This document shows positions 1 through 52,027 of a stretch of DNA of 64,000 nucleotides, one piece after another. Positions within the stretch are counted from its first letter, which is position 1. Each line of letters opens with the position of its first letter. Source of the DNA: a virus. The translations under genes were made by a program, and so were the position numbers. The stretch spans positions 1 to 64,000 of the IMG/VR virus record IMGVR_UViG_3300030104_004245; one strand, 5' to 3'. The notes under the pieces were generated by a model. The model was not told the DNA's origin and made no database searches. It was given only the letters and a program-made list of their open reading frames with translations.

Positions 1-516
1 CTTCTGATTTTTATCTCTCCTAACTTTTTCATCTTTTTCAGAAACCACAAGACCTTCTTTTGTGTATATCAAAGTTGAAGGAATACCCTTACGCTCTTGT
101 TCTATAGACCAATCAGCTCCTCTTCTTTCTGCTTCTATTTCATTTTTCCAAATAGTATTATATGCTCTCTTTAGAGCCGGCTCATTATGAACTTTATTTC
201 CATAACCAACTGGATTTAAATTTCTATTTAAATTATCTTTCCAATTTATAATATTATTTATTTTACTACCAATTCCTCCACCTTCTTGTTGTTTATTAGA
301 AAATTTATTATCCTTTAATGGTACTTCAAATACTGTATTACCTGGAAATGTATATCTTGCACCTGGCATCATAAGCTTAGTATTACCAAGATTATCTATA
401 CCAACAACAGGGTGTTCAACATTTTTCATAGTTATATCTCTTGAGTTAATTTCAAGCCATGGTTCATGTTGATCTACACTTCCTTTTTTATATCCGTTCT
501 TGCTGTATTTTTTCAT
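1..516 (-). CDS. Partial (runs off window) virion/cargo-type protein of crAss-like phage
   Basis: Not in ORF track. ATG overlaps the upstream stop (TAATG). Hand translation MKKYSKNGYKKGSVDQHEPWLEINSRDITMKNVEHPVVGIDNLGNTKLMMPGARYTFPGNTVFEVP...KQQEGG resembles an N-terminal domain I recall from crAss-like virion-associated proteins. Confidence 0.7.
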   Translation of the reverse strand, partial: MKKYSKNGYKKGSVDQHEPWLEINSRDITMKNVEHPVVGIDNLGNTKLMMPGARYTFPGNTVFEVPLKDNKFSNKQQEGGGIGSKINNIINWKDNLNRNLNPVGYGNKVHNEPALKRAYNTIWKNEIEAERRGADWSIEQERKGIPSTLIYTKEGLVVSEKDEKVRRDKNQK

Positions 517-3500
517 TATCTAAAAGATGTGTTAAGTTTTGTATTTGTTAATTTAAGAATCATTTTTTTATCTTCAGGTAAATAATGTTCTACTATTTCA
601 CCTTCTACCATTTCTATATAATCTAATTCAGGAGCTCTTCTTAAAAGTATTTTATGAGCATAATGTCTAAACTTTTTTTGTTCTTCATTTACTTTTTGAT
701 AATCTAAATTTTGTTGATTTAGTGATTTATGATATCCGTCTAGATCTGTAATAAATTGTGTTCTTGCTACATTTCTATTATCTGTAATATCCCAAAATTG
801 ATTAAATCTAAATTTATTTTCTATTTTAGAAAAAGCAATTTGATATGCATTAGTAGCTACATCATAAAAAGGATACTGTGTTAAAGTTGCAAGACTTTCT
901 AAATTTAATTTTAATAATCCTGAAATTTGTTCTGTGTTATAAATAATAGCTTCATTAAAGTTATGATTTTTAACATGATATCTATCTTCACATCTAGTAT
1001 CACTTGGTTCACCTAAATCAGTTGTAGGTGTATCATAGTTTCCAATATCTATTGCTAACTGTTGAAGATATTTATAAGACTCAAGTTGATATTCTACACT
1101 TCTTAATGTTTCTACACTTTGTCCAACAGATGCTACATATTCTATTTCCCAAGGATAAGCTTTATCATAATAGTTAGCAAATAAATCACATCTAGCATTA
1201 TGCTTCCAAATTCCACCACACATAAAACTGGCATCCATAGATATTTCACCATCATAAATACACATTCTAGGATTAGGATTAATATAATCTGAATATCCAA
1301 CTTCTATAAGATCATCACATTCACCAGTTTCTGTAAGAGTTAAATTACTTGCATCAACGCTAATTCCAGGAGTTTCTGGACAATAGCATTCAATTTTTCT
1401 ACATTCTACTTGATCAGGTCTACAATCTTCATCAGGTCTTGGATTAGTTGTTAGTACAAATTCTCCATCACTATTTGCCCAAAACATTTCCATATCATCA
1501 GGGCAAGTACAAAGTTGAGGTGGTTGACATGCAGCTAATTGTAATTGTTCTCCTAGCTGTAGTATATTATTCATTCCTAAATGCCACTGATTAAGTCCTA
1601 ATTGTCCTGTAACACCATCCATATCTACATTACTATATCCTGGATTTTCTGAAGAAGACACGTCATCAACATCAATAAAAACTGAATGAATTTCACAAGG
1701 AACTTCTGTACCATCTGGTAATGTATGTGTACCACCTTGATAATCACTAAAATTACCACCAACATTTTGTGTACTATCAGATACAACAATTGCTATTTGT
1801 TTATATCCAAATAAACCTGTTCTATCTCCTAATGCACTATTTGCTGGATATTTTAATGTAGCATCTAAAATATCTACTGCTAAACTACCACTTGTGCCTC
1901 CATCTGCATTAGGCATATATTGTCCCCAGTCTCCACCATCAGCATATGCGTCATTTGACATCCCTATATTCCATCTTTCATCAATAGAATTTTCTGTTGG
2001 TATATTAGTATTAGCATCATCACAATAATTTAGAATACAAAATCCTCCTGGAAATGGAAAATTTTCAGACACTTGATCATATATTGGTAATGCTGCTGCT
2101 ACATTTTCTGCAGGTAAATCATCTGCAAATGTATATAATCTTTGTGCATGTGGAGTACGTACTGCGCTATTAGGAACGTCAGAAGTAGGACTATTCCAAT
2201 TACCCCAACCTATTTGAACATATCCTGCAAGCATTGCGTCTTCATATTGATCAACAAATGCATTAAGGAAAGTTCTTTGATTATCAATAGCACAAACACC
2301 ACCTGAGCAAACACTAGAACCTGTTGAACCAGAAGTATCAATTGCAAGTACAAGATCTATTAAACATTCTGATCTTGCTAATTCAGCTGTTCCTGCTTCT
2401 TGTGTAACAACATTATTAACAGCTTCAACTGTACTAGATATGTCTTGAATACATTGATCGGTTTCTGAATCATAACTCCATCCTTCTGGACAATATGCCT
2501 CATTATTAAGTTTATCTTCTATTGACTGAGTTGTAAGAAAATGATTTAAACTTGGTAATGCAAGTTCTGGATGCCAATCATGGAATGAAATAAATGATTG
2601 AGATTTTGGATCATAACTTACAGTCCATGATACATCTTTAAAGTATTCACTATCTCCTAACTCAATTGGATATGTGCTATCTGTTAATGTAACATCTTTA
2701 CAGTTTATTGTACTAAGATCTTGAAAAGCTCTATAACATATTACATCATATTGTTCTGGTTTTAGACACATTGATTCATCCGCATCTGTTTGATATATTC
2801 CATCATCTATTACCATATTATATCCATAAGGACATACACAAGTATCAACTCTTATTGTTTCATATTCTTGTGTAGGAGTTGTATCAGTTGGTCCATCACC
2901 ACTACCATCAGTAGTATCACCATTACCAGTTGATCCGTCAGTTGATCCATCACTTGAAGGACCGCCAAAAGTAGATCCGTTACCTTGCTGACTAGCTGTA
3001 GTGCTACCTTGTATTGGTTCAAATATTCTCATATATTGTGCTAATACTAATCCTCTATCTGGATCACCATCATCAGCACCTTGAGCATAGTCTGCAACAA
3101 TCATTAATCTATTGTTAGTATATGTTTGAGTAGGGGTAAACTCAACATAGTATTCTTGCCAAACATATTTATTATATACGTAATTACCATTACCATCTTG
3201 TTGTAAACTAACATTGTTATTTCCTTCTGCTGATCCAGCATCACTTACATATATTGTAGCTATTTCTTGACGGTTAATAGTACCAGCAGAAGCTGAATCT
3301 TTATTTTCTTTCCAATTCAATCCATCTGCTACATCATCACCCCCAAGAAAAACTCTAACTAAAGTAGCTTCACCGTTTGCTATTTTACCAGTAGTATTTG
3401 TTCCTACATCACCACAACCTCCAACAAGAGAACCTGGTGATTGTCTAAAGCAACATGGCTCTGCAAAAGTATTAATTCTTTGTTCAGTATCCATTGCATA

Positions 3501-6500
3501 TGCTTTTTTAGGAAGTCTTAAACGAACAGAAAACGCATACGTTTGTCCCACTGTAAGATTAGGAAGAGCATCAACTGTAGTACCATTATCTGGATGATTT
3601 AAAGCTGCATCTCCAGTCCATAAAGCTGTTCCTGCAGGTATTCCAGCATAAGGCCAATCACCATTAGCACCAAGAGTACCAATTGGAGGTGTAGCTCTCC
3701 AAAAGTTTGGAGAATCTCCGGCAGAATTATTTTTCCAACCTGGTGTAGAAATATATCCTGTTAAACCTCCAATAAACCATGATGTAGTTGGATCAGGAAA
3801 AGTATTAGTACCCGCACTATAAAGAGGATTATTTACAGCAGAACAATAATCAGTAGGAGGAGTTACATCATAAATATTATCAGGACAAAATTCGTCTTGT
3901 GAACCCCATTGAAATGGTATTGGATCATCATATGGAGTAACGTCAGTTATAAAAAAGAAAGGTTGTGGTGGCATTGTTCCTCCTGCGCCCATTACATTTC
4001 CTCCTTCTAATGGGAAAGGGCCCCATGTATTAAGTGATGGACAAAATGGTACAGGTGTATCATTATAGTCATTTAGCCAATTAGTTTTCCAATTCCATGG
4101 TCCATTGTTAATATCATGTACAGTCCAAGGTTGACCTGTATCAGGATTGTCTCCTAGAGTAGTAGGATATTCATTTATAGGTTTTGCTCCTCCATATACT
4201 CTCCATCCAACATCTACTACAGAATTAGTACTGGGTTTATGATACCATCTAGGAACACAATTAGAATTAGAATCCCAATAAAAATATTTTAAACCCCCCA
4301 TGCTATTAGCCCAAATTTGCTGATAATCATCAGGGTTTATTGTAGAAGAATTGTTATCAGTAACTTGTTCGCTTCCTGGTTGAGATACTGGATTATCATC
4401 ATCATCATTATCAACAGGTACCTGTTCATCATAATAACCAAGAATAGGTTCTTCAGTATCTTCTTCTATAATGTTTTCATCATAATCACAACATGTAGGT
4501 TCTGCAAGAACTTCTCCTGTTCCAGGATGTGTATCTCCTACATCATACAATATATAACCGGTAGGACACTCCATTGTTTGCTCTCCACCACCACAAAGAG
4601 TAGAATTATAAACAAATCCTTGTTCTGGATCATATTCTATGCATTGAGTGTCAATAGGTGCATAATCCTTTTTACAGAAATAAATTAAATCATAATTTGG
4701 ATCATATATGGATTGACAACCTACACCAACTACTGGGTTATCTGCATCAACAGTTCCTTCTATTTCTGGGAAGTAATGTAATAATGATGAAGGTAAGTAT
4801 TTATTAAACCAATGTTTCATTCCATAGTTTGCAATATTACTTATACCTTGACCAGTATAATGGAATATTTTACCTTGAGCTTGTGATATATAATACAGTC
4901 CTGATGGTGTATTAACAACACTACGCATGCTTTCACAAGATCCATATTCATGAGATAGATCTGCATTAGTTACATTTTGCATTGGATTGCTAAACAAACC
5001 TCCGTCACCTATAGTTAACTTTGTTTTAAGATCTGTTGTTAATTGATCTACACCTTGGAACATTTGTGGAGCTAGATGTGGAAATAATATCATAGCACCA
5101 GACTTAGATATAGGTTTAACAACATTTACTTGATTCTTAAACTCTTTATAGTTGTTAGGTAAGAATACTTTCCAGAAATCTTTTTTAGATTCTTTAGAAG
5201 CTTGATTAGAATAAATTAATCTTTTAGGATAATAATCATAACATACTTCTGCAACTAATGGATCATAATCTCTTGGTTGAATAGTACCAAAAGTTATAAG
5301 TTGTGTAAAGAATTTATTTTTAGATAATGATTGATCATACTTATAGAAATTACCATCCCTAATAATCTTAGCATCAAATAATGCTCTTGTATCTGTATAC
5401 TCTAACCAATCATAATGTGTTTTTCCTGGAACATCTTCCCAGTCTCTTAATGCAGTATTTATTTCTGATTCTACAAAAAAGTCATTTACACCACTACAAT
5501 GAGTATACATATATTTACCGCTTAATACCCAAATACTAGGAGCACCACTACTTAACTCACCACCACCAGGATTACCACTAACAGCTGCAGATAATTCAGG
5601 AAAAAGACCTCCATCATCTAATTGTCTAAATGAACTAGGTATACCTCCGTTCATCCAGTTAAAACTTAAAGATGTTAAAGGCTCTACAAAACCAGACATA
5701 TCATATCTTTCAAAATTTGCCCAATATCTTGGATAAGGAACATTAATTCTATTTCTATAATCAAAAGGATATCCATCTGGTTGATCATATAAAAAGTCCC
5801 ACCAGAATGGCATTATAACTTTTTCTGTATATCTAGCTAAATAAGTATCACCACCAAAACATAAACGTGAATTAAATGTAGTATTGTTACTAACTTCAAG
5901 TTCACCATCTTCAGTAATTAAATTTCTTTTTATTAAATCATTTTCAAAATCTATATAACATGATGGTGCAGGTATTTGACGTATACCATCTAGTTGTCCA
6001 TATTGATTGCTAAAAGCTAATTTAAGACCTACATAATGTGCAGAAATTGCTCCAGATAAATCTCCACTAGGATTTCCAAATATTCCAGAATTAGTCCCTA
6101 AAGTAAATTTAGAATTATCCCCTGCAACATTACTTGACGGAGTTAAATTTGTACCTTCAGTTTTAAGAGCAACTGTAGCAGGTCTATTAAGATTATTTAT
6201 TTTAATATTTTGAGATAAATTTTGAAAACTATCTCCAACATATCTTGCTTTATCAATTTTAGCTCTATATACATCTCCTGTATTTTTAGTATTTAAATAT
6301 AATCCGTGTGAGCTATATTTTAATACATAATCTCTATAACTAGAAAGATTATAAATAAGATCTATAATTTCTTGTCCGCCTGTAGAAACATGATTCATAA
6401 ACTGATACAGTTTTGAAAATATTTGAACAAAGTTAGGTAGACTTTTATTTCTTGATCCTTCTTGTACAACTTCATCTTGAGGACCCATATGACCAGATGT

Positions 6501-9254
6501 ACTCTTTTTAGCTTTATTATGAGCTTTATTCATATTCCTCATATACTTACCTTCACCTGCTTTTGCAGAAGAAGCTACATTTGTACTAAACGGCCATGCA
6601 TGTGAATCCATTGCTGCCTCTGGATTTGTATCTTCAGTTGCATCTCCAGCAACTATTAAAGCAATGTCAGCAGGATTTCCAGCCGCTACTTGTTGACCTT
6701 CATTTCCATCAGAAGCAGAATTTTCAGTTTCGTGTGCTTCAACATTATCTTTAGCCATTTCCACCATATGTGGCTCTTGAGAAGGAGCATCTCCTCCACC
6801 GTATATTGGTGTATTAGCTTGACCAGGATAATTAACTTCTGCAACATCTGTGTCAGTATCAGTTGTATCAATAGTATCTGTAGTATTCCATGTATCTGTT
6901 AAAAGATATTTATCTGCTGTTGAAATACCTGTTACTTCACCAGTTACTAATCCATATATTGTTCCTTCTGCGCTTGCAACAAATGGAATAAAATCTACTT
7001 CTGCACTTACAGTTCCACCTGTTATTGTACCACCTGATGTTTCTGTTCCTAACGTTTTTACTGTTCCTGTAGTCTGAACTGTTCCACTTCTTTTTTCTGT
7101 ACCATCTCTATCTGTAATTTCATAAGGTCCTATATTTTTACCAATAGATAATGAACCTCCTGACTTTTGTTTCTTAGTTCTTTTACCACGCATTTCACCT
7201 AAAGCATAACCCATACCAATAATGGCTGCAACAAATGCTGATATATCTCTTAATAGTTTTTGACCTGGATGTTTTTCTGATTTATAAAATCTACCTACAG
7301 ACATACCTGAAGTTACACCATAACTTTTAACTTCATAAGGATTTAAGAAAGGTCTATTAAATGATGTTTCAGGTGAATGAAATGTAAATACATCTTTTTT
7401 TACATTAGCACTAGATAAAGGACCTCCTAAAGTACCAGGATTATCAATAGGATTATTAGTTGTTAAATAAGGATCTGAACCTAAATCATTAAATGGATAA
7501 TTAGGAAATACACCTTGTATAATACCTTGACCATCTGAGTCTTGTTCTGGTATTTGATATTTAAACATATTTCTTATTATTCCTTTTGCTATAATAGATT
7601 TATGTCCTTCTCTAGAACCCACTAAAATTTCAAATCCTTTTATATTTGGAATACGTTGACCATAGTTATCTGTAGGCCAAACAATATTTTCAAATTCAAC
7701 TGCTAATAAATATATACTTTGTGCATCTGATGTTGATCTATGACAAACATCATCTGTTTGTTCATCTGGCATTTTATGATGTCTTATAGGCACACCACAT
7801 AAGTCTCCCCATATATCAGGTTGTGTAGCAGGATATTTTTCTACTGATTCCCAATATCCCATATAACCTTTACCAGCAATATAACCTCCATCATTTAAAG
7901 TATCACCAACAGTATAACCTGGTAATGCATCAAGTCTAGATGCTGTATTTTCTACTTGCCATCTTAAGTTATCACTATCAATAACATTAGAACCACCTAC
8001 AACATCCATATCATTGCCATCTGGAGCTCTACCTGGTATATGATAAGATGAAGATTTTTCTCCAGTAGTATAAACAAACCTTATAAAAAATGAATATTGT
8101 TCATCTCTCATAAAAGTTGTTTTATTACCACCATTAGCATAATAATTAGCAGGATATCTTACAGATACCCAATGAGCTACTATTTCATTTGCTTGTTTTT
8201 GATAATTAAAATCAAATTGTGTAGTTGGTCCTTGCCTAATAAGATAGTCATTTACTACATACATCTTATCTGATTTTTCAAAAGCAGGAGTTCTTAATGG
8301 TAAAAACTCAATAGGCACACTTTCTAACTTCTGATCTATATAGCTTATTTCAATAAAAGATTGTTCTGTACTATACAAGCCAATTTTTTTAGCTTGCATT
8401 TGTCCTTGGTTATTACTAGCAATAACTAATTCAAAAAATTCAAACTCTTTATCTAAATTTGAAATTTCTAATGTTAATGAAGCTTGACCATCTTCGTGTG
8501 AAAATAAAGGTTGTAAATTAGATTGTCCAACATAATCACTTATTTTTTGTTCATTGAGTGTATAGGCTATAAAAGCTTGATATGATCCATTTCTTAATTG
8601 ACCACCTTTTTTTGATTTTTGTAAATCCATACAAGGTATATCAATAAAAGGAGCTAATCTTACTCTTTCACAATCAAGTCTTAAAGGTTGAGCATCTTCA
8701 TATATGACGCAATCAGATGTTGGATTACCGTCTTCATCAACAGGAGAAGTAATTATTTGTTTCCATGGTATGTTTCTATTAGAAGGTATATCATCTCCAA
8801 AACCTAAATTAAGCGTTCTAGAAGGATTTAAACCATCATCCCAATATATTTGCCAAGAGCAATCAAAATTCTCTTTAGAAGCTCCTGTAATTAAATATCT
8901 CTTATTAAAGTTTAAACATGTATCATTTACTAATGTAGTATATTCACATTTACTATCATCAAATAAAGCAATCTCACTAGTTTGATTATCAGTGGACATT
9001 ACTATCCATTTATCAGCATATAAATGTATAGCACCAATAATTGTATAGGGTGCACAACCACACTTCCAATTAGCTGGCTCATTTCCAATAGATCCTACAT
9101 CTCCTTTTTGTGAATTATTAACGCAGTTTCTACAATGAGTCCAAGCCTCCTTTCCTACCAAAGAGGTATTAGGATCCTTAACCATACCTTTAACAGGCAG
9201 TTCTGTATCTACTTTTGTAGTATTTTGAAGCTGTGGACGTTGTTGTTCTGCCAT
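516..9254 (-). CDS. Giant tail hub/muzzle (tail stabilization) protein with inserted vWA, lectin-like and Cys-rich modules
   Basis: 2912 aa, lies directly after the ring proteins. Has segments typical of crAss-like stabilization proteins (WTVSYDP..FISFHDWHP, PIRHHKMPD, FGGDTYLARY) and an internal DTSGS MIDAS motif. Confidence 0.75.
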   Translation of the reverse strand: MAEQQRPQLQNTTKVDTELPVKGMVKDPNTSLVGKEAWTHCRNCVNNSQKGDVGSIGNEPANWKCGCAPYTIIGAIHLYADKWIVMSTDNQTSEIALFDDSKCEYTTLVNDTCLNFNKRYLITGASKENFDCSWQIYWDDGLNPSRTLNLGFGDDIPSNRNIPWKQIITSPVDEDGNPTSDCVIYEDAQPLRLDCERVRLAPFIDIPCMDLQKSKKGGQLRNGSYQAFIAYTLNEQKISDYVGQSNLQPLFSHEDGQASLTLEISNLDKEFEFFELVIASNNQGQMQAKKIGLYSTEQSFIEISYIDQKLESVPIEFLPLRTPAFEKSDKMYVVNDYLIRQGPTTQFDFNYQKQANEIVAHWVSVRYPANYYANGGNKTTFMRDEQYSFFIRFVYTTGEKSSSYHIPGRAPDGNDMDVVGGSNVIDSDNLRWQVENTASRLDALPGYTVGDTLNDGGYIAGKGYMGYWESVEKYPATQPDIWGDLCGVPIRHHKMPDEQTDDVCHRSTSDAQSIYLLAVEFENIVWPTDNYGQRIPNIKGFEILVGSREGHKSIIAKGIIRNMFKYQIPEQDSDGQGIIQGVFPNYPFNDLGSDPYLTTNNPIDNPGTLGGPLSSANVKKDVFTFHSPETSFNRPFLNPYEVKSYGVTSGMSVGRFYKSEKHPGQKLLRDISAFVAAIIGMGYALGEMRGKRTKKQKSGGSLSIGKNIGPYEITDRDGTEKRSGTVQTTGTVKTLGTETSGGTITGGTVSAEVDFIPFVASAEGTIYGLVTGEVTGISTADKYLLTDTWNTTDTIDTTDTDTDVAEVNYPGQANTPIYGGGDAPSQEPHMVEMAKDNVEAHETENSASDGNEGQQVAAGNPADIALIVAGDATEDTNPEAAMDSHAWPFSTNVASSAKAGEGKYMRNMNKAHNKAKKSTSGHMGPQDEVVQEGSRNKSLPNFVQIFSKLYQFMNHVSTGGQEIIDLIYNLSSYRDYVLKYSSHGLYLNTKNTGDVYRAKIDKARYVGDSFQNLSQNIKINNLNRPATVALKTEGTNLTPSSNVAGDNSKFTLGTNSGIFGNPSGDLSGAISAHYVGLKLAFSNQYGQLDGIRQIPAPSCYIDFENDLIKRNLITEDGELEVSNNTTFNSRLCFGGDTYLARYTEKVIMPFWWDFLYDQPDGYPFDYRNRINVPYPRYWANFERYDMSGFVEPLTSLSFNWMNGGIPSSFRQLDDGGLFPELSAAVSGNPGGGELSSGAPSIWVLSGKYMYTHCSGVNDFFVESEINTALRDWEDVPGKTHYDWLEYTDTRALFDAKIIRDGNFYKYDQSLSKNKFFTQLITFGTIQPRDYDPLVAEVCYDYYPKRLIYSNQASKESKKDFWKVFLPNNYKEFKNQVNVVKPISKSGAMILFPHLAPQMFQGVDQLTTDLKTKLTIGDGGLFSNPMQNVTNADLSHEYGSCESMRSVVNTPSGLYYISQAQGKIFHYTGQGISNIANYGMKHWFNKYLPSSLLHYFPEIEGTVDADNPVVGVGCQSIYDPNYDLIYFCKKDYAPIDTQCIEYDPEQGFVYNSTLCGGGEQTMECPTGYILYDVGDTHPGTGEVLAEPTCCDYDENIIEEDTEEPILGYYDEQVPVDNDDDDNPVSQPGSEQVTDNNSSTINPDDYQQIWANSMGGLKYFYWDSNSNCVPRWYHKPSTNSVVDVGWRVYGGAKPINEYPTTLGDNPDTGQPWTVHDINNGPWNWKTNWLNDYNDTPVPFCPSLNTWGPFPLEGGNVMGAGGTMPPQPFFFITDVTPYDDPIPFQWGSQDEFCPDNIYDVTPPTDYCSAVNNPLYSAGTNTFPDPTTSWFIGGLTGYISTPGWKNNSAGDSPNFWRATPPIGTLGANGDWPYAGIPAGTALWTGDAALNHPDNGTTVDALPNLTVGQTYAFSVRLRLPKKAYAMDTEQRINTFAEPCCFRQSPGSLVGGCGDVGTNTTGKIANGEATLVRVFLGGDDVADGLNWKENKDSASAGTINRQEIATIYVSDAGSAEGNNNVSLQQDGNGNYVYNKYVWQEYYVEFTPTQTYTNNRLMIVADYAQGADDGDPDRGLVLAQYMRIFEPIQGSTTASQQGNGSTFGGPSSDGSTDGSTGNGDTTDGSGDGPTDTTPTQEYETIRVDTCVCPYGYNMVIDDGIYQTDADESMCLKPEQYDVICYRAFQDLSTINCKDVTLTDSTYPIELGDSEYFKDVSWTVSYDPKSQSFISFHDWHPELALPSLNHFLTTQSIEDKLNNEAYCPEGWSYDSETDQCIQDISSTVEAVNNVVTQEAGTAELARSECLIDLVLAIDTSGSTGSSVCSGGVCAIDNQRTFLNAFVDQYEDAMLAGYVQIGWGNWNSPTSDVPNSAVRTPHAQRLYTFADDLPAENVAAALPIYDQVSENFPFPGGFCILNYCDDANTNIPTENSIDERWNIGMSNDAYADGGDWGQYMPNADGGTSGSLAVDILDATLKYPANSALGDRTGLFGYKQIAIVVSDSTQNVGGNFSDYQGGTHTLPDGTEVPCEIHSVFIDVDDVSSSENPGYSNVDMDGVTGQLGLNQWHLGMNNILQLGEQLQLAACQPPQLCTCPDDMEMFWANSDGEFVLTTNPRPDEDCRPDQVECRKIECYCPETPGISVDASNLTLTETGECDDLIEVGYSDYINPNPRMCIYDGEISMDASFMCGGIWKHNARCDLFANYYDKAYPWEIEYVASVGQSVETLRSVEYQLESYKYLQQLAIDIGNYDTPTTDLGEPSDTRCEDRYHVKNHNFNEAIIYNTEQISGLLKLNLESLATLTQYPFYDVATNAYQIAFSKIENKFRFNQFWDITDNRNVARTQFITDLDGYHKSLNQQNLDYQKVNEEQKKFRHYAHKILLRRAPELDYIEMVEGEIVEHYLPEDKKMILKLTNTKLNTSFR

Positions 9255-20742: not shown

Positions 20743-20817
20743 AATTAAAAATTTTATGTGAGGACCATTACCCCCACTGGTTAATACAAATAAATAAAAA
20801 AATTGGTTTTCTATATA

Positions 20818-20831
20818 TATAATATACAAAA
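20818..20831 (-). promoter_or_regulatory. Putative late promoter TTTTGTATATTATA
   Basis: Exact motif copy. Confidence 0.6.
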
Positions 20832-20853
20832 ATTAAATAATACTCTCTGTATA

Positions 20854-26176: not shown

Positions 26177-26201
26177 GGTTTTTGGTTTTAATGGTTATAT
26201 A

Positions 26202-26215
26202 TATAATATACAAAA
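26202..26215 (-). promoter_or_regulatory. Putative late promoter TTTTGTATATTATA
   Basis: Exact motif upstream of the scaffold-MCP operon. Confidence 0.6.
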
Positions 26216-26279
26216 GATTTATGAGTAAACCTTAAAAATTTTTTTAAATTTAAAAAATTGTTCTAGTATATAGCTATCA

Positions 26280-40928: not shown

Positions 40929-41263
40929 GATTAAAAATTTTAAAGTTAATAAATATTTATATACTTGTTGTTTTTTAAATATACGCCCCCGTCAATTATC
41001 TACGATGTTATAAAAAACCCAATCACACACAATATCAAGGTTAATATATTATTTCAAAGGGCAGCACAAACCTTTTTGTAAAGGATGGGTATGCCCCAAA
41101 AACTCTTTCTATATATATAATATAATAAAAAATTGTCCCATATAAAAACAAAAGTTGTGTGTTTTGCATTCTGAGTGGGTCCCTCTGTGCTACTCCCCTA
41201 CTTAAATTCGGTGGGCATGGTGCCCCCATAATTAAATATTTATAAATTAAAATCTTAAAACAA

Positions 41264-43523: not shown

Positions 43524-44114
43524 ATGAAAAATCAACAAGCTGTCAGCATACAAGCTGATGAACAAGGAAACGTAGTAAGAGTATCTAATAACAACCCAGA
43601 ATTTGGTCATGTTAGATTAATCCAAAGCAAACGTGTAATAAGAGGTGGATGGGTAAACAAAAAAGAAAGAAGCGCATTATTACAAGGTACAGTAGAGGAT
43701 TTAACTGCATGCAGCTATGAAGCTGGTGAAGTATTAGATGGAAATATCATTATAAAAGAATCTTTTACACCATTTAATAAAAAGAAACCAGAAATGCATC
43801 TTAAAGTAGCAGGTGACAGTGGTGTTACATGCAAAGGTGTAGATCAAGAAACTGGTGAAGTAAGAGACATTTACAGAACTACTGAGTATGATGACACTGG
43901 TCTATTAAAAGATCAGTTAATTCCACATGTTAATGGTGATGAAATTAAAGCAGCATTAACTGGTGAAAGTATGTCTAAATCAGACTTAAATGATGTTCTT
44001 GCAAAAGGAACAAAGAAAACTAAGTCTAAAGAGACACCTGTAAAAGAAGAGGAGGTTATTGAAGAACCTGCTGAAGAAGAAGTAGTCATGGAAGATGAAA
44101 CTTTTGAATTATAA
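43524..44114 (+). CDS. Putative ssDNA-binding protein (beta-rich core, acidic tail)
   Basis: 196 aa ending EEEVVMEDETFEL. Confidence 0.4.
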   Translation: MKNQQAVSIQADEQGNVVRVSNNNPEFGHVRLIQSKRVIRGGWVNKKERSALLQGTVEDLTACSYEAGEVLDGNIIIKESFTPFNKKKPEMHLKVAGDSGVTCKGVDQETGEVRDIYRTTEYDDTGLLKDQLIPHVNGDEIKAALTGESMSKSDLNDVLAKGTKKTKSKETPVKEEEVIEEPAEEEVVMEDETFEL

Positions 44115-44274
44115 TTAATACATCCTGAGTAAATACGGTATCTGCAGTACCTGTTAATAAGCTTAAGTATTTACTTGTATCAGTCCTGGCCAGTGTTAAA
44201 TAAGGTAAAAGAGTTGGATTAAACTCCAATGTTCCCTTATTTAAACGAGAGGTACCAGTGGATGTATAATTATA
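44110..44274 (+). ncRNA. Candidate multi-branched ncRNA
   Basis: Closing 15-bp stem 44110-44125/44260-44274 (one bulge); inner 10-bp stems 44127-44136/44167-44176 and 44196-44205/44235-44244. Confidence 0.55.
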
Positions 44275-44338
44275 GGAATGATCAACCTTAACTGATCACA
44301 CGTAATTTTAATAGTATTACGTTTAAATTTTTTTTACT

Positions 44339-44374
44339 GAAGAGGGAGTGACCGGAACCGGTTGCTCCTTTTTC
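44339..44374 (+). terminator. Rho-independent terminator
   Basis: GAAGAGGGAGTGACCG-GAAC-CGGTTGCTCCTTTTTC. Confidence 0.75.
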
Positions 44375-44404
44375 TATATATAAACCTTTTAAAAATTAAT
44401 AAAA

Positions 44405-44914
44405 ATGCTCACTCAAGAAGAATATCAAAAAATAAAGCCTGGTTTAGATAAACTAGACGAACAAAGACAAATTGCAAGATACACATATTTAGGTATCTTA
44501 AATGAATATCAATTATACTTAAAAGAACCAAAACAAAAACTCGTTTACACAAAACTTAATCCACATCAACATTTCTTATTTAAAAGAATATTACATGGAT
44601 TAAAGATGTATAAGCCAAAAGAAATAGAGACTATGCATTGGGATAAAAAGAGAAGAATAACTAAAGTATGGAAGCGTGGTCAAAATGTGATAAATGAGTT
44701 TAAACAATACGTTGCTTGGCAACAAGTTAAGCCTATTTTTCGTATATTTGCTCAATCAGAATTAGGTAGAGAAATATATGAAATGCCATTTGAATATTTA
44801 CCTGATTATAGGAACAGAATGACCTTACAAGAGTTAGGTATAAACTATGAAGACTTGATCTTAAAGTTTATAGGTTTAAAATTGTTACCAAAAAACTATT
44901 TAAGTTTAAAATGA
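44405..44914 (+). CDS. Hypothetical protein
   Basis: 169 aa ORF. Confidence 0.65.
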   Translation: MLTQEEYQKIKPGLDKLDEQRQIARYTYLGILNEYQLYLKEPKQKLVYTKLNPHQHFLFKRILHGLKMYKPKEIETMHWDKKRRITKVWKRGQNVINEFKQYVAWQQVKPIFRIFAQSELGREIYEMPFEYLPDYRNRMTLQELGINYEDLILKFIGLKLLPKNYLSLK

Positions 44915-45174
44915 GACAAAAATCTAAAAAAATGCAGAGAATTGATGCAAAGTATAGTCAATTGAGGAGGGTATTCCTCACTGATTATCCTTTGTGTCAA
45001 GCTGCTCTGCCTAAATGTACTAATAAATCCACTGATGTACATCATAAAAAAGGTAGAGGTATACATCATAATGATGTAAATACCTGGTTATCAGTATGTA
45101 GAAGCTGTCACAATTGGATAGAGTTAAATCCAATAGAGGCAGAAGAATTAGGATTTTCAATTAAAAGAATATGA
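44911..45174 (+). CDS. HNH endonuclease (small, Zn-binding)
   Basis: 'CQ...C...TDVHHKKGR...WLSVCRSCHNWI'. Confidence 0.8.
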   Translation: MRQKSKKMQRIDAKYSQLRRVFLTDYPLCQAALPKCTNKSTDVHHKKGRGIHHNDVNTWLSVCRSCHNWIELNPIEAEELGFSIKRI

Positions 45175-48661: not shown

Positions 48662-49187
48662 GAATAAAATCTCTTTTCCTATACAAAACAAACAATATGA
48701 TGTAGGAGCATTAATTAAATTAGGTTTAGTAGTATATAAAGAAGGGCCAATGTATTCATTGACACCAAAAGGTAAAAGTATATGTGTTAAATATAATCAA
48801 TACTTTAAAGTCTCTAAAAAGAGAACTACCACACAACTATTAGGTAAAGGATATGTAGAAATGCTTAAAATATACAGAGAAGCATGGCCTGCAGGTAAAT
48901 TACCAAGTGGTAAACCAGGTAGACAAAATGTTAAAACATTAGAAAATGCATTTAGATGGTTTTTTGATACATATGATTATACTTGGGAAGAAGTTAGTCA
49001 TGCAACAGTTATGTATCTTACTGAATATAAAGCAAAAGATTATATGTATATGAAAACTAGTCAATACTTTATATGTAAAACAGATAAATATAAAGTAAAG
49101 CATTCAGAATTAGCTGATTATTGTGACATGGTTCGTGATGGTGTTAAAATAGAAGATCAAGATTATTTTAAAGAGAAAGTAGTATGA
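48588..49187 (+). CDS. Putative replication initiator / helicase loader (wHTH N-terminus)
   Basis: wHTH-like 'LIKLGLV...YSLTPKG'; directly upstream of DnaB. Confidence 0.5.
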   Translation: MLELFQKILKDKLTPNQLLLLYGIKNKISFPIQNKQYDVGALIKLGLVVYKEGPMYSLTPKGKSICVKYNQYFKVSKKRTTTQLLGKGYVEMLKIYREAWPAGKLPSGKPGRQNVKTLENAFRWFFDTYDYTWEEVSHATVMYLTEYKAKDYMYMKTSQYFICKTDKYKVKHSELADYCDMVRDGVKIEDQDYFKEKVV

Positions 49188-50140
49188 GTAAAATAAAACC
49201 AGCATGGGACGGACAATATCAGTCTTTTAATGAAGCACTGAAATATATGCTTGCTAGGCAAAGTGGTAAAGAGAAATCTATACAAACACCATGGCCTAAG
49301 TTTAATGATGCTATCACAGATGGATTAGAATGGAACACCCTTACTGTTATCGGGGGAAGACCTGGATCAGGTAAAACTTTGATCAAGGATCAGATAGTAA
49401 GAGAATCTTTCATTCTAAATCCAGCTGAAGATTATAGAGTATTAGAATTTAGCTTTGAAATGGTAGGTAGAACTACAGCATTAAGAGAGTTTTCATCTTT
49501 AACTGGTAAAAGTTATAAGGAATTATGTAGTGCAGGAACAAAACTAACTAAGGATACATTTGACAAATGTCATATATATGCTAAAGATAGAATAAAAAGT
49601 CCTGTAGATATCATTACTACACCAATGACTGTAAATCAAATGAGAGATCAAGTAGATATATATATGAATTTACATCAAGGTAAAAAGACTATTATAACTC
49701 TTGATCATAGCATTTTAGTAAAAAGAGCACCGTATCAAAATAACAGATTAGATATGTTATTTGAATTAGGTGAATTTTTTACTCAATGTAAAAGAGATTA
49801 CCCTTGTATGTTTATATGTTTATCACAATTAAATAGAAATATAGATAATCCAGACAGAGCAGTAAATGGTAAGTATGGTAACTATGTATTAGAATCAGAT
49901 ATATTTGGTTCAGATGCAATGCTACAACATGCTGATACTTTAATAGGTATCAACCGACCTGCTAAACAAAAGATTAGATATTATGGACCTGATAGATATA
50001 TAATAGAAAATGATAGAACTTTAGTATTACACTTTCTAAAAGCAAGAAATGGTGATACAAGAATGAGTTTTTTCAAAGCAGAATTTGAAAGAATGCAAAT
50101 AACTGAGATGGATACACCACCTCAAGAACAAAGAAGATAA
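49184..50140 (+). CDS. dnaB: DnaB-like replicative helicase (C-terminal ATPase domain only)
   Basis: GGRPGSGKT, FSFEM, TLDH, LSQLNR, QHAD, LKARNG. Confidence 0.9.
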   Translation: MSKIKPAWDGQYQSFNEALKYMLARQSGKEKSIQTPWPKFNDAITDGLEWNTLTVIGGRPGSGKTLIKDQIVRESFILNPAEDYRVLEFSFEMVGRTTALREFSSLTGKSYKELCSAGTKLTKDTFDKCHIYAKDRIKSPVDIITTPMTVNQMRDQVDIYMNLHQGKKTIITLDHSILVKRAPYQNNRLDMLFELGEFFTQCKRDYPCMFICLSQLNRNIDNPDRAVNGKYGNYVLESDIFGSDAMLQHADTLIGINRPAKQKIRYYGPDRYIIENDRTLVLHFLKARNGDTRMSFFKAEFERMQITEMDTPPQEQRR

Positions 50141-51307: not shown

Positions 51308-52027
51308 ATGAACGAAACAAATTTAAAAAATAAAGTTATGTTAAATACTAAAGACATGTCTGCAGGAAGTGGACGAACTAAACCAGTTTTAGAACCAGGT
51401 AATCATGAAATAAAAATTAATTCTATTACCTTAGATCAAACACCGTATGATGCTGATTCATACAATATACATTTACACGTAGAAACACAACCAGTTGGTG
51501 GTGATTTTGAAGGTTTCTTTAGAGATTATAATAATCAATCATTAGGTAGATATGATGGTCAAGTTGGAAGAGTAAGAATAAGTCCTTTTCCATTTAAAGA
51601 CACTACATTACCAAGTGGTAGAGAAATTAGTAGAGATCAAGAGATTCTAAAACATATGATTACTCTTGCTGAAACATTAGATATGAGAGATGGATTAGAT
51701 TCTATTGAAGCAGAAACTATAGAAAAGTTTATGACTGAATGTAATACTTTATTTACAGGTGAAAAAGGCTCTAAGTTTATAAATATGTGTATAGGTGGCC
51801 GTGAATGGGAAAATAAAGAAGGTTATGTAAATAATGATCTTTTCTTACCACGTATATCTAAAGATGGTATTGCAATGGAAGCAGTAGATGCAGAAAACTC
51901 TAGATTACTTAAGTTTGATCGTGCTATGCATGTAAAAGCTTTAGTTAAGAAAAGTGTTAATCCAAATGGTGCTGAAGAAATACCATTTAAAGCAGACTCA
52001 GGATCAGGTTCTGATTTTGAGCTTTAA
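51308..52027 (+). CDS. Putative ssDNA-binding protein (Sak4 partner)
   Basis: Follows the Sak4-like ATPase; 'LEPGNHEIKI' start and acidic-aromatic tail SGSDFEL. Confidence 0.55.
   Translation: MNETNLKNKVMLNTKDMSAGSGRTKPVLEPGNHEIKINSITLDQTPYDADSYNIHLHVETQPVGGDFEGFFRDYNNQSLGRYDGQVGRVRISPFPFKDTTLPSGREISRDQEILKHMITLAETLDMRDGLDSIEAETIEKFMTECNTLFTGEKGSKFINMCIGGREWENKEGYVNNDLFLPRISKDGIAMEAVDAENSRLLKFDRAMHVKALVKKSVNPNGAEEIPFKADSGSGSDFEL

Follow-up and report, generated by a model that had tools for sequence, protein, structure and literature searches.

Element A is a 161-nucleotide (nt) insertion in the 64,000-nt stretch of viral DNA analysed here (the window; positions 1 to 64,000 of the IMG/VR virus record IMGVR_UViG_3300030104_004245), where it lies at the end of a gene encoding a protein of 196 amino acids (aa). 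It has inverted-repeat ends, is flanked by a short direct repeat, occurs at four different positions, and keeps its fold through compensatory base changes. On this comparison of sequences, we class element A with the non-autonomous mobile elements, its conservation pattern being like that of an RNA. The reading that we favour, and which we hold with evenly divided confidence, is that it is a mobile element, not described before, of marine crAss-like phages and that it carries a functional RNA fold; that RNA rather than DNA is its working form is what we infer.

The insertion is seen by comparison with relatives of the phage. A protein-guided scan of IMG/VR gave eight loci (L001-L008) with the same gene order as the window: a helix-turn-helix (HTH) protein, a 93-aa open reading frame (ORF), a homologue of the 196-aa protein, a 169-aa ORF, HNH, an 87-aa ORF, and a helicase. 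A gap of 290 nt separates the 196-aa ORF (43524-44114) from the following ORF (44405-44914) in the window, versus about 97-149 nt in the eight relatives. In every one of these the gene end ..TTTGAATTATA continues directly as GGAATGATCAACC.. (AGACTGATC.. in three; GGTTCATTAAC.. in L003 and L005), and the window attains the post-gene sequence of the relatives (GGAATGATC../AGACTGATC..) only from 44275. The empty site reads TTTGAATTATA joined to GGAATGATC in L003-L007 and ..TTATAAGACTGATC in L001, L002, and L008. The extra 161 nt, missing from all eight, are placed at 44114-44274 on the plus strand; 44107-44267 is equivalent owing to the 7-nt repeat AATTATA, which stands on both flanks (44107-44113 and 44268-44274) and as a single copy in the empty alleles. 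The inverted ends of the insert form helix P1 of the fold described below.

Judged by this alignment of relatives, the gap is made of two parts, the insert at 44114-44274 and an ancestral gene end at 44279-44374. The ancestral part (plus strand) begins with hairpin H1 (TGATCA..TGATCA, 44279-44298), found in seven of the eight aligned relatives, L003 having TTAAC/GTTAA instead. Hairpin H2 follows (44300-44335; ACGTAAT/ATTACGT, pairing over 44300-44322, then TTTAAATTTTTTTT). At its position the relatives have hairpins of differing sequence and then a T-rich run, and H2 with its T-rich run resembles a first terminator. All eight relatives have the G+C-rich hairpin with TTTTT (44339-44374); from its form and its conservation, it is read as the putative terminator of the 196-aa gene. 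A simple rule-based terminator scan gave no site in 43800-44600, probably since the longest stem absorbs the T-run. Helices P1-P4 of the insert are present at other loci without the window's later hairpins. Since each occurs without the other, P1-P4 and the later hairpins have separate histories. An earlier reading made from the letters of the window alone (the sequence-only reading) had described one multi-junction RNA filling the gap. It has to be replaced by a discrete 161-nt insertion, P1-P4, and an ancestral gene end, the later hairpins and terminator, shared with the eight syntenic relatives.

Copies of element A were sought by pattern scans made from its stems and core and were confirmed with a covariance model (R1). 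Nine copies, including that of the window, occupy four positions and score 157-192 bits with R1. The family is so far known from contigs of marine, probably crAss-like, phages only. Three come from IMG/VR (L034, L047, and L053) and five from metagenome contigs (L054, L055, L056, L058, and L059), the latter being the true ones among six pattern matches. At site 1 (window, L058, L054, and L056) the element lies at the stop of the 196-aa gene. At site 2 (L034 and L053) it immediately follows the stop of another gene, of 235-241 aa, whose product ends in ..SGSGSDFEL, and it lies 5' of a second element, B, discussed later. Site 2' (L059) is in the intergenic region of site 2, past the gene's terminator and 25 nt 5' of the primase start. 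At site 3 (L047 and L055) element A lies 3' of a 257-aa gene (..LPFSN) and of element B, just 5' of the primase gene. Three of the four positions share one intergenic region, in different phages, and all four are near the ends of genes for replication proteins with acidic tails (..FEL or ..PFSN). At sites 1 and 2 the element begins at the stop codon, and in L047, L055, and L059 it ends 23-30 nt ahead of the primase start codon. Every one of the nine has the same sense as the genes next to it.

Inverted ends and a direct repeat of 5-7 nt, the length being no better fixed, occur together with empty alleles at two independent sites. At site 1 the repeat AATTATA is exact in three of four copies, and there are eight empty alleles. 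Site 2 is empty in the relatives L065, L066, and L067 and also behind the window's own 239-aa gene (51308-52027, ending ..SGSGSDFEL); of the filled copies, L034 shows the 7-nt repeat TTATAAT without mismatch, and in L053 the repeat is imperfect. On the left, eight of nine copies are flanked by TTATAAT or TATAAT. The terminal inverted repeats (ATACATCC/GGATGTAT and variants) measure 8-11 bp and can be extended to 15-16 bp in the window. Site 3 is without a clean empty allele, the close relatives L086 and L087 having a different, poorly folding segment of 117 nt (z -1.4).

Element A moves between sites. Its presence or absence differs between close relatives; for example, L004 (empty) and L054 (filled) share the next 46 nt. 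The inner sequences of L054 (site 1) and L055 (site 3) are one base apart, as are those of L047 (site 3) and L053 (site 2), and the outer P1 sequence goes with the site and not with the inner sequence. Such near-identical inner sequences at different sites point to recent transfer or gene conversion between copies. Element A is single-copy in the complete virus record of 121,758 bp, both by BLAST and by the covariance model, and one copy each is present in G009 and G010. The model found no copy in the records of the eight relatives, five of which span both sites. BLAST of element A gave nothing in 50,697 phage records or 72,556 plasmids, and BLAST of its 3-kb neighbourhood gave nothing in the phage records. 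Two pattern scans of 185,579 bacterial and archaeal species genomes gave 0 matches in one case and 13 matches, none confirmed, in the other.

A number of candidates from the scans were rejected. The P2-stem pattern gave 31 loci, two of them true (L034 and L047), and six loci (L022, L027, L031, L033, L040, and L045) have 17-18 nt in common with the 5' strand of P2 and no R1 score. The P4-stem pattern gave nine loci, none related. The single match of the ends-only pattern (L011) lies inside a coding region and was taken as chance, and so were L052, L071-L083 (P3 pattern), L057 (21-mer), and L085. A scan of IMG/VR with the left-end 18-mer gave L047 and one chance match only.

The fold of element A, on the plus strand, consists of a closing helix and two arms. 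In the minimum-free-energy fold, the 5' strand of P1 (44110-44125) is the left inverted end and overlaps the stop codon at 44112-44114; the 3' strand (44260-44274) is the right inverted end, its final 7 nt (44268-44274) being the right AATTATA. The P2 domain (44127-44176) has a 10-bp stem (44127-44136/44167-44176) that holds hairpin P2a (44137-44151, GGTAT/GTACC) and an internal loop, asymmetric and perhaps containing a mini-hairpin (44153-44162). The P3-P4 arm (44186-44258) is composed of P3 (44186-44191 with 44251-44252 and 44255-44258; CTGG(CC) against GG..CCAG), the internal loop TAAAAGAG / TGTTC, and P4a (TTAAATAAGG at 44196-44205 with CCTTATTTAA at 44235-44244), which encloses a distal hairpin (44213-44218 with 44225-44230). 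All the helices that the sequence-only reading had listed, P1-P4 as well as the TGATCA, ACGTAAT, and G+C-rich hairpins, recur at their positions in this fold. Its proposal that P1 sequesters the upstream stop codon agrees with the fold too, in which P1 covers 44112-44114. The region 44105-44380 folds at -77.8 kcal/mol versus -54.0 +/- 4.6 for 200 dinucleotide shuffles (z -5.23; 0/200 match), that is, better than chance, as had been anticipated. P1-P4 by itself has a folding z of -3.05, and the minus strand of 44105-44380 one of -3.74.

No match to a known RNA family was found. The Rfam 15 covariance models, which cover hammerhead, twister, pistol, hatchet, HDV-like, retron msr, Y RNA-like, and riboswitch families, gave 0 matches at gathering score in the whole 64-kb window and the eight copy-bearing loci, and in E-value mode over 43900-44500 they gave nothing within 44110-44274 up to E 10. 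ARAGORN found 0 tRNA or tmRNA genes in the window. These results bear out the earlier statement that no tRNA, hammerhead, or riboswitch core was recognised. As for the undescribed non-coding RNA (ncRNA) that had been proposed, the structure is real and belongs to no Rfam family; the single RNA across the gap did not hold, and the mobility of P1-P4 was missed. A sub-threshold likeness to FopS and GibS, small RNA families of Bacteroidetes, was seen at 44302-44378 (E 0.5-0.9; 22 bits, the gathering scores being 56 and 115). It lies over the ancestral second hairpin and terminator and is probably chance.

The nine copies are not conserved evenly. In a near-invariant block of 72 nt (44122-44193, plus strand; alignment columns 13-84), 69 of the 72 columns are identical in all nine. 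The block holds the P2 domain, junction J2/3, the 5' strand of P3, and the palindromes CTGCAG (44143-44148), TAAGCTTA (44157-44164), and CTGGCCAG (44187-44194), each of them invariant in the nine copies. Of the 18 pairs of the P2 arm, 17 never vary. Element A has five six-base palindromes containing G or C, a number reached by 1.6% of windows (a mild enrichment). The three invariant palindromes might serve an RNA for kissing or dimerisation, or be bound in DNA by dimeric proteins. Outside the block, sequence changes and pairing is kept. In P1, U-A becomes C-G in two copies and C-G becomes U-A in two copies, and pairs 10-177 and 12-175 (alignment A1) change on both sides. P4a has three unrelated sequences, all of which pair. 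About five variants of P4 exist; the distal hairpin differs in each, and L059 carries two hairpins there.

Covariation statistics were obtained from a model-guided alignment of the nine copies with 500 shuffles, and, the copies being related, the controls are indicative only. Paired cells number 361 of 369 (97.8%) versus 93.7 +/- 0.6 in shuffles, a value that 0/500 reach. Eight of 41 pairs change on both sides (6/500 shuffles reach this), with 22 cells showing both-side changes (0/500). The covariation score is 0.202, versus 0.113 for shuffles and 0.04-0.07 for slid partners. The fold is kept with compensatory changes among homologs, an outcome that favours the sequence-only reading on this point. 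An invariant core combined with covarying ends and a covarying peripheral arm is the reverse of what a transposon shows, and it argues for a working RNA or a working single-stranded DNA.

Because the orientation of element A is in every case that of the replication genes at its flanks, it would be transcribed along with them. It is present in an RNA library: one contig of 447 nt from metatranscriptome run X7 is identical to window 43899-44345, spans the gene end, the insert, and both later hairpins, and stops 10 nt past the first T-run. The RNA run X19 holds diverged flanks only. In the contigs of four runs there is no joint that skips element A; contigs say nothing on excision. A promoter scan found no sigma-70-like promoter at the TATAAT abutting the element. 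The consensus has 39 G.U cells versus 7 A.C cells. A mirrored fold of the minus strand would pair 329 of 369 cells versus 361 on the plus strand, a count that is biased, the structure having been derived on the plus strand.

In the reading that we favour, element A inserts into A+T-rich sites containing TTATA, leaving a direct repeat of 5-7 nt, and its inverted-repeat ends pair as helix P1. The complete phage genome has no Phage_integrase above cut-off and no DDE_Tnp_1, rve, or Y1_Tnp match. Since no searched integrase or transposase family is encoded in the phage, mobility would need a trans factor or recombination between co-infecting phages. The product would be a compact three-way-junction RNA with P1 closing it, a near-invariant P2 arm, and a P3-P4 arm whose stems vary yet remain paired around a conserved internal loop. 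Most probably, the invariant P2 arm would offer a conserved partner, protein or RNA, a surface for sequence-specific binding. The RNA would work either while still in the message of the replication genes, as part of its untranslated portion, or once excised from that message.

Several observations weigh against a working RNA. Element A is dispensable, since at least five relatives are without a copy at both sites. The P2 arm is without any covariation, which fits recognition of DNA by a protein equally well, and the invariant palindromes CTGCAG, TAAGCTTA, and CTGGCCAG resemble sites for dimeric DNA-binding proteins. Independent events are few (nine copies, about five P4 variants, four positions), and the shuffle control overstates significance for related sequences. 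Folding energy does not separate the strands, both of which fold well in the per-copy values. The X7 contig is uninformative on strand, ends, and level, and DNA carry-over is possible. Antisense targets of element A in the genome of 121,758 bp do not exceed chance: for lengths of 11, 12, and 13 nt there are 33, 12, and 3 matches versus 29.6, 8.0, and 1.8 in shuffles. Orientation is likewise ambiguous. GC skew and gene direction coincide in this arm of the genome, and the folded strand is probably the lagging-strand template, which is preferred by transposons that move as single-stranded DNA (IS200/IS605). Because genes, GC skew, and presumably replication are co-directional, the sense orientation would also be expected of such a transposon.

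The main rival makes element A purely selfish DNA, a non-autonomous element similar either to MITEs (miniature inverted-repeat transposable elements) or to PATEs (palindrome-associated transposable elements), in which the hairpins and the invariant block are recognised in DNA by a mobilising enzyme and the RNA is functionless; we regard this as a real possibility, though on balance an unlikely one. It accounts for the inverted ends and direct repeats at two independent sites with empty alleles, for the presence/absence polymorphism between close relatives, and for near-identical copies at different sites. A target-specific inserter would leave the TTATAAT/TATAAT left flank seen in most copies, the palindromes lie inside the invariant block, and both strands fold equally well. 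MITEs are moreover known in viral genomes; PMC11602168 puts them in 0.01% of viral sequences, mostly common to hosts. Those viral MITEs were linked to hosts by shared copies, whereas element A is single-copy in its genomes and had no match in the bacterial genomes scanned. Its ends vary, by compensatory pairs, and its interior is invariant, the reverse of a classical MITE. A selfish element is further disfavoured by the lack of the searched integrases and transposases in the complete phage genome and by the asymmetry of G.U pairs between strands. Targets are also abundant, the two target heptamers occurring 122 and 88 times in the phage genome, yet all four positions are beside genes with acidic-tailed replication products.

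A new functional class of phage RNA that moves as a cassette is a more speculative version of the favoured reading, and we give it little weight. Phages would then swap element A between untranslated regions of replication genes, and the RNA would be either a self-cleaving ribozyme or a decoy or sponge that titrates a conserved factor of host or phage. One such factor might be a defence protein able to sense the single-strand-binding proteins of phages; the near-invariant 72 nt would form the active site or the binding site.

It is improbable, too, that element A is only a cis-acting part of the message, either a barrier to 3' exonucleases or a tuner of read-through or of translation of the next gene, like REP/ERIC-type repeats. 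Such a role would suit an element that is always in transcribed intergenic space and always sense, that starts at the stop codon at sites 1 and 2 and covers it with its closing helix, and that ends shortly before the primase start in L047, L055, and L059. Against it, the place of the element relative to terminators and element B varies by site (before, after, or between), a simple barrier needs no 72-nt block with 69 invariant columns, and relatives manage without it. A single undescribed ncRNA running from P1 to the terminator, as first proposed, is very improbable: the whole gap does fold well, and the X7 contig does cover P1-P4 with both later hairpins, but those hairpins and the terminator are kept in relatives without P1-P4, and P1-P4 is found elsewhere without them.

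Element B is a conserved element of 114-121 nt between the acidic-tailed gene and the primase gene. It was located on the plus strand in L047 (1543-1656), L055 (9238-9354), L053 (7328-7448), and L034 (5129-5248), and on the minus strand in L065 (1378-1493), L066 (1377-1493), and L067 (1155-1272). It looks like a pseudoknot, with a covarying stem 1 (GCGGG/CCCGC, GCAGG/CCTGC, and GTAGG/CCTAC) and a longer stem 2 that crosses stem 1 and covaries as well. A hairpin loop reads AGUAAG, and the last hairpin has the constant loop CUUACU. Rfam gave no match on the four of seven loci that were in the scan (L034, L047, L053, and L055), L065-L067 lying outside it. Element B may regulate the primase gene. 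In the same region, the 117-nt segment at L087 5016-5132 (minus strand), the same in L086, is richer in G+C, is unrelated to element A, and takes the place of the element A copy of L047. An ATG inside it is in frame with the primase start, and the segment may extend the N-terminus of the primase.

A TATAAAC motif at 44379-44385 (plus strand), conserved 3' of the terminator in the relatives, may be a promoter element for the next gene. The TTTCTATATATA.. motif (TATAAAC in relatives) recurs at 20807-20847, 26192-26216, 41106-41130, and 44370-44410, directly 3' of terminator-like hairpins, and is held by the repeat families D10 and D20 of the window. It is a candidate phage promoter.

The upstream gene (43524-44114, plus strand, from the ORF list) encodes the 196-aa protein, whose acidic tail reads ..EEEVVMEDETFEL. 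Searches of Pfam, PHROG, and PDB sequences gave no match for it. An AlphaFold model (pLDDT 71) has an N-terminal part resembling an oligonucleotide-binding (OB) fold; the best Foldseek rows are SSB/PriB at E 0.04-0.3, and VIA gives SSB/PriB at Z 4.0-4.8 over residues 5-72. The gene had been called SSB-like before. The modelled N-terminus speaks for this and the sequence searches do not, so that an SSB-like protein is weakly backed. The 239-aa gene of the window lies after a gene for a Sak4-like annealing protein and before the primase gene. Its product gave no usable AlphaFold model (pLDDT 33.5), and the ESM Atlas offers a lead to DUF669, in 17% of one cluster. Both proteins of this phage, of 196 aa and 239 aa, end in ..(T/D)FEL, and BLASTP between them gives E 0.55; among the three acidic-tailed proteins BLASTP found no clear homology (E 0.008 and 0.55). 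The common tail, a feature of the amino acid sequence, suggests a common docking partner in the replisome. In G005:C1 2664-3340 (minus strand; L067 and L068) the homologue of the 239-aa protein matches as two pieces, residues 1-152 and 166-239, which points to a frameshift, or to inserted sequence, in this record.

Site 1 has as its neighbours the HTH protein, two proteins without family match, an HNH endonuclease, and a helicase. Genes of Sak4-like, DnaB-like, and primase type adjoin the other sites. The downstream gene of 169 aa (44405-44914, plus strand) has no family match. The small HNH endonuclease gene (44911-45174) stands two genes downstream of the insertion and, being present in all relatives, filled or empty, does not track it. 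The genome has two divergent gene blocks. Its DnaB-like helicase gene (49184-50140) has its best tblastn matches in crAss-like phages at 31-36% identity, and every sequencing run that holds this stretch is marine. Giant ORFs of 2912 aa (window 516-9254, minus strand) and 5293 aa (G000:C1 near 102 kb) fit a crAss-like phage. The virus is probably a marine crAss-like phage, and its host would, by inference only, be a member of Bacteroidota.

In genomes of lytic-type phages, mobile elements that are small and non-coding have seldom been described, and the known ones are mostly traced to the host (PMC11602168). No description of element A was found in the literature, the supplementary viral-MITE lists of that paper, which were outside coverage, being a place that might include it. 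Filled and empty alleles of element A are cleanly distinguished, it occupies four positions, and copies that are almost the same occur in phages of unrelated background. At about 160 nt it is a short, concrete candidate for ribozyme and decoy assays and for studying the movement of ncRNA cassettes between co-infecting marine crAss-like phages.

Among known systems, the msr-msd region of retrons is similar in having inverted-repeat ends as a closing helix, a conserved stem-loop domain, and a long variable hairpin; unlike retrons, no copy of element A has a reverse transcriptase gene beside it, and there is no Rfam match. Orphan RNA motifs of phages and metagenomes, and small self-cleaving ribozymes travelling with phage genes, form families in Rfam. 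Element A is like them in being intergenic and linked to phage genes, with a conserved core, variable peripheral stems, and a function unknown at discovery. It is unlike them in being without an Rfam match even at E<=10 and in having clear insertion boundaries and empty alleles.

PATEs are hairpin-bearing miniature derivatives of IS200/IS605 that are moved as single-stranded DNA by a Y1 transposase. A PATE of this origin inserts 3' of a fixed short target, makes no duplication, and has similar subterminal hairpins. Element A shares with PATEs a fixed orientation, a constant short left flank, hairpins near both ends, and a greater importance of the structure of one strand than of the end sequence. 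It differs from them in that its two subterminal hairpins are dissimilar, its ends pair together, a direct repeat flanks it, and its phage genome has no Y1 transposase.

ERIC/IRU and Correia/NEMIS are bacterial MITEs that are transcribed and fold as RNA. Element A resembles them in a length of 150-190 nt, inverted ends, and a short A+T-rich direct repeat. The same traits are shared by viral MITEs (PMC11602168). Like all of these, element A is intergenic, presumably co-transcribed, present or absent between relatives, and non-coding. Unlike them, it is single-copy per genome and in no bacterial genome searched, its ends vary by compensation around a nearly invariant interior of 72 nt, this interior is a three-way junction and not one long left-right palindrome, and its insertions are confined to the ends of replication genes. 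With respect to the classical criteria for MITEs, element A lacks several copies per genome, and its ends are not the best-conserved part; it does have terminal inverted repeats and a target-site duplication with an empty allele. If it is only a MITE, element A extends the MITE class to phage-restricted, single-copy elements.

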